From Escherichia coli (GTDB lineage: Bacteria; Pseudomonadota; Gammaproteobacteria; Enterobacterales; Enterobacteriaceae), in the NCBI RefSeq assembly GCF_016903815.1, contig NZ_CP069973.1: a stretch of DNA of 64,000 bases, one strand, 5' to 3'. Shown here piece after piece: positions 1,537-16,824 of the stretch. The notes beneath the pieces were generated by a model that was given only the letters and a program-made list of their open reading frames with translations, searched no databases and had not been told where the DNA came from. Within the stretch, counting starts at the first letter, position 1. Every line of letters begins with the position of its first letter. The position numbers were made by a program, and so were the translations under genes.

Positions 1537-4861
<3,325 letters not shown>

Positions 4862-13535: not shown

Positions 13536-13622
13536 AAATCCCGACCCTGAGGGGGTCGGGATGAAACTTGCTTAAGCAAGAAGCACTTAAAAAATTCGTT
13601 ACACCAGGAAATCTGATGTGTT
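13536..13622 (-). ncRNA. dsrA: DsrA small regulatory RNA (Hfq-dependent activator of rpoS translation, anti-H-NS)
   Basis: Reverse complement reads AACACATCAGATTTCCTGGTGTAACGAATTTTTTAAGTGCTTCTTGCTTAAGCAAGTTTCATCCCGACCCCCTCAGGGTCGGGATTT, the DsrA sequence with its terminal hairpin and U-tail. Confidence 0.93.
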
Positions 13623-13801: not shown

Positions 13802-16326
<2,525 letters not shown>

Positions 16327-16397
16327 CCTGACGACTCCCAACCTGCTTTTTTATGATTCTGGCATAACCTGGCGATAGCGTACCGCAAAACAGCGAT

Positions 16398-16549
16398 AAT
16401 TTTATAATGGTGGCATGATAAGACGCGACAGACATCGATAGTTTTATAACGTAGGCATGATAAGACGCGATAGCGTCGCATCAGGCAATTCAGTGCAGAC
16501 ACTGGCACACCCGACCGGATGCGACGTGAGCGCCACATCCGGTCGGGTG
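16398..16549. repeat. REP/BIME-like intergenic repeat cluster (two tandem ~40-bp repeats plus a perfect palindrome)
   Basis: Tandem copies containing GGCATGATAAGACGCGA at 16412-16428 and 16454-16470; palindrome CACCCGACCGGATG...CATCCGGTCGGGTG at 16507-16549. Confidence 0.7.
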
Positions 16550-16563
16550 TTAATGATACCCTT

Positions 16564-16746
16564 TCAAACTTCTTCCGCAGAACGACTCCCCTCCCCCGGA
16601 ACAAGCTCGGTTTCATGAAAAGCTTCCCGCTTGACCCCGTAACCGTCATACCAACGACACTCAACCATACCGCTGGAGTATCCGGTGACAATCATCCGCG
16701 GGCCGCCCTCTTTAACCGTAACTTCCTCACTAACCATAAAGCTCAT
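16564..16746 (-). CDS. yodC: small protein YodC (60 aa)
   Basis: MSFMVSEEVTVKEGGPRMIVTGYSS... matches YodC. Confidence 0.85.
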   Translation of the reverse strand: MSFMVSEEVTVKEGGPRMIVTGYSSGMVECRWYDGYGVKREAFHETELVPGEGSRSAEEV

Positions 16747-16824
16747 ACTCGCCTCCTTTTTTCGAGTGAAACTTGTTCACCTTAGTTGAAGATGGCGAAT
16801 TTTGCATAATAGCCTGTGCGAGTA

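Follow-up and report, generated by a model that had tools for sequence, protein, structure and literature searches.

A repeat cluster between dgcQ and yodC of Escherichia coli is best explained as a partly decayed BIME in the 3′ untranslated region of yodC

A 64-kb stretch of an E. coli genome (hereafter the window) carries direct repeats and a long palindrome side by side between dgcQ and yodC, raising the question of whether they form a new element, control either gene or belong to a class of repeat already known. Gene identities were taken from the list of open reading frames and from RefSeq records that are 100% identical, that of strain E2865 among them. Both sources placed yodC (60 aa, DUF2158) at 16564-16746 and dgcQ (yedQ), which has a GTG start, at 14632-16326, in agreement with the location given in the initial annotation. 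Both genes are on the minus strand, dgcQ being the next same-strand gene downstream of yodC, and the intergenic region between them is 237 bp long (16327-16563). The stop codon of yodC is a TGA at 16566-16564, and the repeat cluster lies within the yodC 3′ untranslated region. The gene order in the window is that of the K-12 region rcsA-dsrB-yodD-dsrA-yedP-dgcQ-yodC-yedI-yedA-vsr-dcm. A scan of the whole window at Rfam gathering thresholds returned the DsrA sRNA and two tRNA genes (13536-13622, minus strand; 28706-28792, minus strand; 29784-29856, plus strand) and nothing beyond these. No REP is annotated at the locus in the MG1655 RefSeq record; as this record has no repeat_region anywhere in 2031000-2046000 either, the absence is uninformative.

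The direct repeats were delimited by a repeat search and by Tandem Repeats Finder, which gave them a score of 127. They are two head-to-tail copies of 42 bp, at 16390-16431 and 16432-16473, that are identical at 36 of 42 positions, and their alignment score was reached by none of 2000 shuffles. Tandem repeats of about 40 bp had been reported at 16398-16478; the repeats are real, but their limits are corrected here to 16390-16473. The two copies share an identical 17-bp core, GGCATGATAAGACGCGA, at 16412-16428 and 16454-16470, which has no other occurrence in the window. Read on the plus strand, the yodC-proximal copy 2 (16432-16473) consists of the flank ACATCGATAGTTTTATAAC, a GTAG and the 5′ arm plus loop of an intact y-type REP. 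The dgcQ-proximal copy 1 (16390-16431) consists of the flank ACAGCGATAATTTTATAAT, a GGTG replacing the GTAG and a single y REP arm that includes its core; on its own it can form no hairpin (z = 0.23).

REPs of E. coli are imperfect palindromes of 30-40 nt with a GTAG 5′ of the foot and a two-base mismatch in the stem; they come in types y, z1 and z2, and a REP and an inverted REP with a linker between them make up a BIME (PMC3333891, Ton-Hoang et al.). The complete y-type REP at the locus spans 16451-16486 on the plus strand and is therefore an inverted REP (iREP) on the minus strand. It begins with GTAG at 16451-16454, followed by an imperfect palindrome at 16455-16486, and the end of copy 2 leads into it as cGTAG-GCATGATAAGACGCG-ata-GCGTCGCATCAGGC, with AA opposite GC in the stem. 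The conserved AA/GC mismatch is thus kept, together with one extra mismatch in the foot (CATG for CCTG), and the hairpin was predicted to fold at −14.8 kcal/mol (z = −4.2). This complete y REP, of which the core of copy 2 forms one arm, was not mentioned in the initial annotation, nor was a small hairpin in the adjoining linker.

The long palindrome, which had been called perfect, is real but not perfect. Its arms, 16507-16526 and 16531-16550, are complementary at 18 of 20 positions in the DNA (90%) around a 4-nt loop. When folded as plus-strand RNA, the stem contains two A·C mismatches that interrupt it. RNA of the minus strand, on which yodC and dgcQ are transcribed, gives an unbroken stem of 20 bp with two G·U pairs and a CUCA loop (−41.1 kcal/mol, z = −8.2). 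Read on this strand as CCGGATGTGGCG...CGTCGCATCCGG, the palindrome is a z-type REP (16507-16550, core 16514-16544) in the opposite orientation to the y REP. It differs from E. coli REPs in general in lacking the GTAG, with CCCG in its place, and in having a foot some 6-7 bp longer than the core REP. At the usual mismatch site it has GT opposite GC, which yields one G-C and one G·U pair and leaves no bulge on the REP strand.

The foot of the z hairpin is separated from the yodC stop codon by a spacer of 13 nt (16551-16563, minus strand, by direct reading of the sequence). A very stable hairpin so placed might be an intrinsic (Rho-independent) terminator of yodC, the remainder of the region being unrelated spacer, and the retention of a shorter hairpin at the same position in K-12-type alleles would fit such a role. 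This explanation is unlikely, since no allele has a U-run after the stem, where the window continues with GCCAGUGUCUG, and since the hairpin sequence is that of a z-type REP. A scan for intrinsic terminators over 16200-16850 likewise found 0 sites.

The z REP on the minus strand and the y REP on the plus strand are joined by a linker of about 16 nt (16491-16506), which contains the mini-palindrome CAGTG-caga-CACTG (16491-16504) with a 5-bp stem. Both REPs can fold as hairpins, the locus is extragenic, between two coding sequences, and the number of units varies between strains, as is known for BIMEs (PMC3333891). The arrangement was also recognized by the Rfam covariance model of naRNA4 (RF02564), which was built from Z2-Y units of REP325. 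In a 221-bp search the model aligned over its full length with minus-strand positions 16454-16544 (E = 8e-7, 43.3 bits), in the order z REP, linker and y iREP; both hairpins were matched, and the linker was longer by an insertion of 13 nt. As the score stays below the gathering threshold (59.5 bits), the match is a resemblance and not membership of the Rfam family. Matches of the long hairpin to miRNA families by E-value were set aside as chance matches of the kind that any long stem produces.

The naRNA4 match brings in a further alternative, namely that the locus encodes a discrete small RNA of the naRNA4 type, which would bind HU and organize the nucleoid. The match is on the transcribed strand, if below threshold, and the orthologous unit of E. 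whittamii scores above the threshold. We nevertheless regard such an RNA as highly improbable: the model amounts to a Z2-Y BIME unit and would be matched by any such BIME, the score in the window is 43.3 against 59.5 bits, and most E. coli carry a decayed allele without a match.

Copy number in the genome separates the BIME from the tandem repeat. A 111-bp segment covering the z and y REPs was found in 5425 of 5426 complete E. coli genomes, at a median of at least 39 places per genome, and is therefore a dispersed repeat. A 71-bp junction across both 42-bp copies was found in 1154 genomes, nearly always at a single place per genome (1156 places in total); the 42-bp unit as such is locus-specific. 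As read from the sequence, the 42-bp repeat appears to be no independent family, and its copies are the 3′ halves of two y REPs with their local flank, belonging to two BIME units. The REP arm pattern GCCKGATGCGRCG occurs four times in the window against 0.72 expected, with two of the occurrences in this locus. One further match lies in another intergenic region, in a canonical solitary z-type REP at 27160-27193 (GCCGGATGCGGCGCGAGCGCCCTATCCGGCCTAC), which serves as an internal comparison. The consensus core of ERIC had no match in the window at up to three mismatches. Two outcomes that would speak against REP identity were looked for, namely similarity at the level of shuffled controls and outgroups without REPs, and in both cases the opposite was found.

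Taken as a whole, we are highly confident that a partly decayed BIME in the yodC 3′ untranslated region is the best explanation of the locus. The initial suggestion that it is of REP/BIME type and nothing new holds up on the naRNA4 layout, the GTAG and AA/GC features, the dispersal, the orthologous BIMEs described below and the strain-variable number of units. The locus is an ordinary representative of an already known class of E. coli element and is of low interest in that respect. What it illustrates is that a decaying two-unit BIME can mimic an independent 42-bp tandem repeat next to a "perfect" palindrome.

Like other y and z REPs of E. coli, which have hundreds of related copies per genome, the REPs at this locus are imperfect palindromes in an extragenic 3′ untranslated region. 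The y copy shares the GTAG and the AA/GC mismatch with them and is close to the y half of naRNA4, from which it differs at one base of the stem foot and in the loop; a second y copy, unlike an ordinary REP, is cut down to a single arm. As to subclass, no IHF consensus (WATCAANNNNTTR) is present on either strand of 16327-16563, and BIME-1 is excluded because there is no IHF site. BIME-1 elements (RIB/RIP) also combine one y and one z REP, as a single unit does in many lineages here, but they have a long L linker with an IHF site. The z half aligns with the Z2 half of naRNA4, outgroups carry tandem copies, and the spacing of about 26 nt between the naRNA4-aligned REP cores exceeds the consensus linker by about 13 nt. 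BIME-2 elements combine z2 and y REPs in tandem copies, with a short S linker and flanking s, l and r motifs. Judged by REP types and tandem copies, and despite the longer linker, the closest subclass appears to be BIME-2 or atypical BIME. REP325, the BIME-2/atypical array between yjdM and yjdN from which naRNA4 derives, similarly lies between two same-strand genes. It differs in having six Z2-Y pairs, against at most two units here, and a linker of about 13 nt; the tandem unit here additionally includes about 30 nt of locus-specific flank, and the array is partly deleted. The paired REPs of Pseudomonas that are mobilized by RAYTs (REPINs) also consist of two inverted REPs and a spacer, and the y REP here has the features recognized by TnpA-REP. 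Here, however, the alleles vary by local deletions and duplications at one fixed site, and not by whether a mobile doublet is present.

The origin of the two 42-bp copies was examined in other Escherichia. One genome per species was scanned for a degenerate yodC motif, and the sequence downstream of yodC was taken from each. All six lineages recovered, namely E. albertii, E. whittamii, Escherichia sp. MOD1-EC7003, E1V33 and two divergent records labelled "E. coli", have a z REP, a linker of about 25 nt, a y iREP and a GTTATAAAA-type flank immediately after the yodC stop codon. The orthologous z REP reads GCCGGAT[AA/GT]GGCGTTCACGCCGCATCCGGC and the y iREP GCCTGATGCGACGCTGnCGCGTCTTATCATGCCTAC. 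The arrays of E. whittamii and strain E69 comprise two units in tandem, with about 30 nt of similar flank after each unit. In a crude motif scan of about 50 yodC loci of Enterobacteriaceae, REP arms of the E. coli type were found downstream of yodC only in Escherichia. Scores of the orthologous units against naRNA4 were 61.4 bits for E. whittamii unit 1, above the 59.5-bit threshold, 55.1 for SCPM-O-B-8794, 54.6 for E. albertii, 51.1 for E1V33, 49.5 and 43.7 for E69, 43.3 for the window and the 359-type allele described below, and 38.2 for E. whittamii unit 2; K-12 and MOD1-EC7003 gave no match at E ≤ 0.01. These scores can be read as a decay series.

Compared with the two-unit arrays, unit 1 of the window is complete, with z REP, linker, y REP with its CTAC and the flank GTTATAAAAcTAtCGATGTCTG, and of unit 2 only TCGCGTCTTATCATGCCacc and the flank ATTATAAAATTATCGCTG are left. 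Given the two-unit arrays in E. whittamii and E69, we infer that copy 1 is the 3′ remnant of a second BIME unit, from which z REP, linker and y REP 5′ arm would have been lost. On the minus strand, the layout then runs from the yodC stop codon through 13 nt, the z hairpin, the linker, the inverted y REP with CTAC and an AT-rich flank to the 3′ half of the second y REP, a similar flank and the conserved dgcQ upstream region. The head-to-tail order and the exact 42-bp period of the copies might instead reflect a recent, simple slippage in the lineage of this strain that had nothing to do with BIME arrays. That is improbable, as 6 of the 42 positions differ between the copies, against an identity of at least 98% in the flanks across E. 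coli, and as the flank of copy 2 (CTAC-GTTATAAAA...CGATGTCTG) is orthologous to the inter-unit flank in the E. whittamii and E69 arrays.

A still older trace of the same sequence may be present closer to dgcQ. The segment 16349-16388 (plus strand, TTTTATGATTCTGGCAT...GCGATAGCGT) has two collinear local matches to the unit of y REP plus flank, reached by 2 and 4 of 2000 shuffles, respectively, and is tentatively a third, much older relic of that unit. It overlaps the presumed dgcQ upstream region and is kept in all Escherichia examined, as far as E. albertii. Part of the dgcQ upstream region may accordingly have been derived from BIME sequence.

The number of units was compared across E. coli strains, as had been suggested, and it varies. 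The locus was matched in 5363 of the 5426 complete genomes, in which three main alleles were distinguished. The 401-type allele of the window, with the two-unit remnant, is present in 1154 genomes by the junction query, including HS, IAI1, ATCC 8739 and E2865. The 359-type (61 genomes in the 80-90% identity band, for example 2018-05-5CC) is a one-unit form that consists of the left part of copy 1 and the right part of copy 2, as recombination inside the 17-bp core predicts. The 334-type, in about 4150 genomes including K-12, O157:H7, UPEC69 and 55989, is more decayed and has one y arm only. Without its 13-nt apex, the z hairpin of this allele is reduced to 14 bp of stem around a CAC loop (−25 to −28 kcal/mol); several linker and foot positions differ from those of the other two alleles, with hardly any difference in the flanks. 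Phylogroup A includes strains with either of the main alleles (HS and K-12), which points to recombination or recurrent events. We propose that unequal recombination or deletion later gave rise to the 359-type and 334-type (K-12) alleles. The order of deletions and duplications is a parsimony argument from few lineages, and the 359-type could be ancestral, with the 401-type arising by recombination with a two-unit allele.

The hairpin next to yodC has been kept through these changes. Its foot is paired as CCGA/TCGG in the window, CAGG/CCTG in K-12-type alleles, CAGA/TCTG in MOD1-EC7003 and AATAG/CTATT in E. albertii. In an alignment of 11 sequences from alleles and species, 90% of cells were paired and four pairs had changed on both sides; the covariation score was reached by 13 of 500 shuffles. 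These compensatory changes appear to give supportive but thin evidence that the hairpin is conserved. Together with the lengthening of the foot, they hint at selection on RNA structure and not at pure decay.

Some genomes carry minor variants. Strain 33E (NZ_CM147847.1, locus at about 115-372) has an allele of the 401-type in which GTTTT is duplicated in the flank between the copies. The hairpin of this allele is chimeric, with a 5′ arm of window type (CCCGACCGG) and a 3′ arm of K-12 type (CCGGCCTGG), a pattern that points to a recombination breakpoint within the palindrome. The 90-95% identity band to which 33E belongs holds about 27 genomes. A 6-bp insertion, AAGCAG, follows TGGCAT in rl0044, at a position aligned to about 16365 of the window, and produces a 340-bp allele. 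In AST205 (NZ_AP043614.1, locus 2577-4028), an IS1A lies directly upstream of dgcQ, and an associated deletion that runs from yodC into the 5′ part of hchA has removed the BIME.

The allele frequencies also bear on whether the 42-bp repeats control dgcQ, either as paired binding sites (operator- or iteron-like) or as a duplicated promoter or UP element. The repeats are situated 65-150 bp upstream of the dgcQ start, and each has an AT-rich TTATAAAA box. Such a function is very unlikely, because the cores shared by the two copies are arms of REPs, only one copy is present in about 78% of E. coli genomes, and the intergenic region contains neither a minus-strand σ70-like promoter nor an IHF consensus. 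The promoter result comes from a σ70 scan of 16200-16850, which found none on the minus strand of the intergenic region, and manual inspection of the TATAAAA boxes revealed no usable −35 element. The same scan gave a σ70-like match directed toward dgcQ within the yodC coding sequence (16664-16691, minus strand; TTGTCA, 16-nt spacer, TATGGT), which is probably noise, as 0.9 such matches are expected by chance in the region.

As to what a BIME at this position might do, REPs are reported to be obstacles to 3′→5′ exonucleases and to be capable of partial, Rho-dependent termination; in the case of REP325, deletion led to about 10-fold higher expression of the downstream gene and to less mRNA of the upstream one (bioRxiv 10.64898/2026.03.23.713779). 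By analogy, the hairpins in the 3′ untranslated region likely stabilize yodC mRNA and partly attenuate readthrough into dgcQ. Transcription of yodC would place the z hairpin (−41 kcal/mol) and the y hairpin at the 3′ end of the mRNA, where they would block 3′→5′ exonucleases, and partial, Rho-assisted attenuation would limit readthrough into dgcQ. Published effects of REPs depend on context, and many REPs have no stabilizing effect (bioRxiv 10.64898/2026.03.23.713779). A REP placed less than 16 nt away from a stop codon reduces translation, according to a passage in PMC12306157 that cites Liang, Rudd & Deutscher 2015. The stem foot at 16550 is 13 nt after the TGA, inside this 15-nt limit, and the hairpin may therefore also damp yodC translation. 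The canonical REP core begins only at about 19 nt from the stop codon; the stem falls inside the limit because its foot is lengthened. At the DNA level, TnpA-REP needs the GTAG and the mismatch in vitro (PMC3333891); the intact y REP has both and would be a substrate of the TnpA-REP type, which may contribute to the rearrangements, and the z REP has neither.

REPs have been proposed as tunable controls in 3′ untranslated regions that differ between strains (bioRxiv 10.64898/2026.03.23.713779), and yodC is a σS ChIP target in E. coli (PMC4447067) and σS dependent in Salmonella (PMC5437024). At the present locus, the alleles contrast a 20-bp stem of −41 kcal/mol with a 14-bp stem of about −26 kcal/mol, both 13 nt past the yodC stop codon, and they also differ in the presence of an intact y REP. 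It is conceivable, although doubtful, that the three alleles constitute a cis-regulatory polymorphism that alters yodC mRNA stability, yodC translation and readthrough into dgcQ and contributes to differences in biofilm between strains. The allele differences are unlikely to matter phenotypically. If they did alter yodC or dgcQ expression, the locus would be of modest importance, dgcQ being the gene of a cellulose-regulating diguanylate cyclase; beyond this, one more polymorphic BIME locus matters little outside annotation.

Our search of the literature on yodC and REPs, or on the promoter or transcription start site of dgcQ/yedQ, found nothing specific to this locus, and the RepRanger supplements mention neither yodC nor dgcQ. 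The Term-seq/bicyclomycin supplement of PMC7815308 has nothing for the yodC 3′ end and contains only a site internal to dgcQ. This significant minus-strand site, at K-12 position 2027287 (about 15.6 kb in the window), is listed in what appear to be data on readthrough upon Rho inhibition; it is unrelated to the BIME and is relevant to dgcQ transcription.
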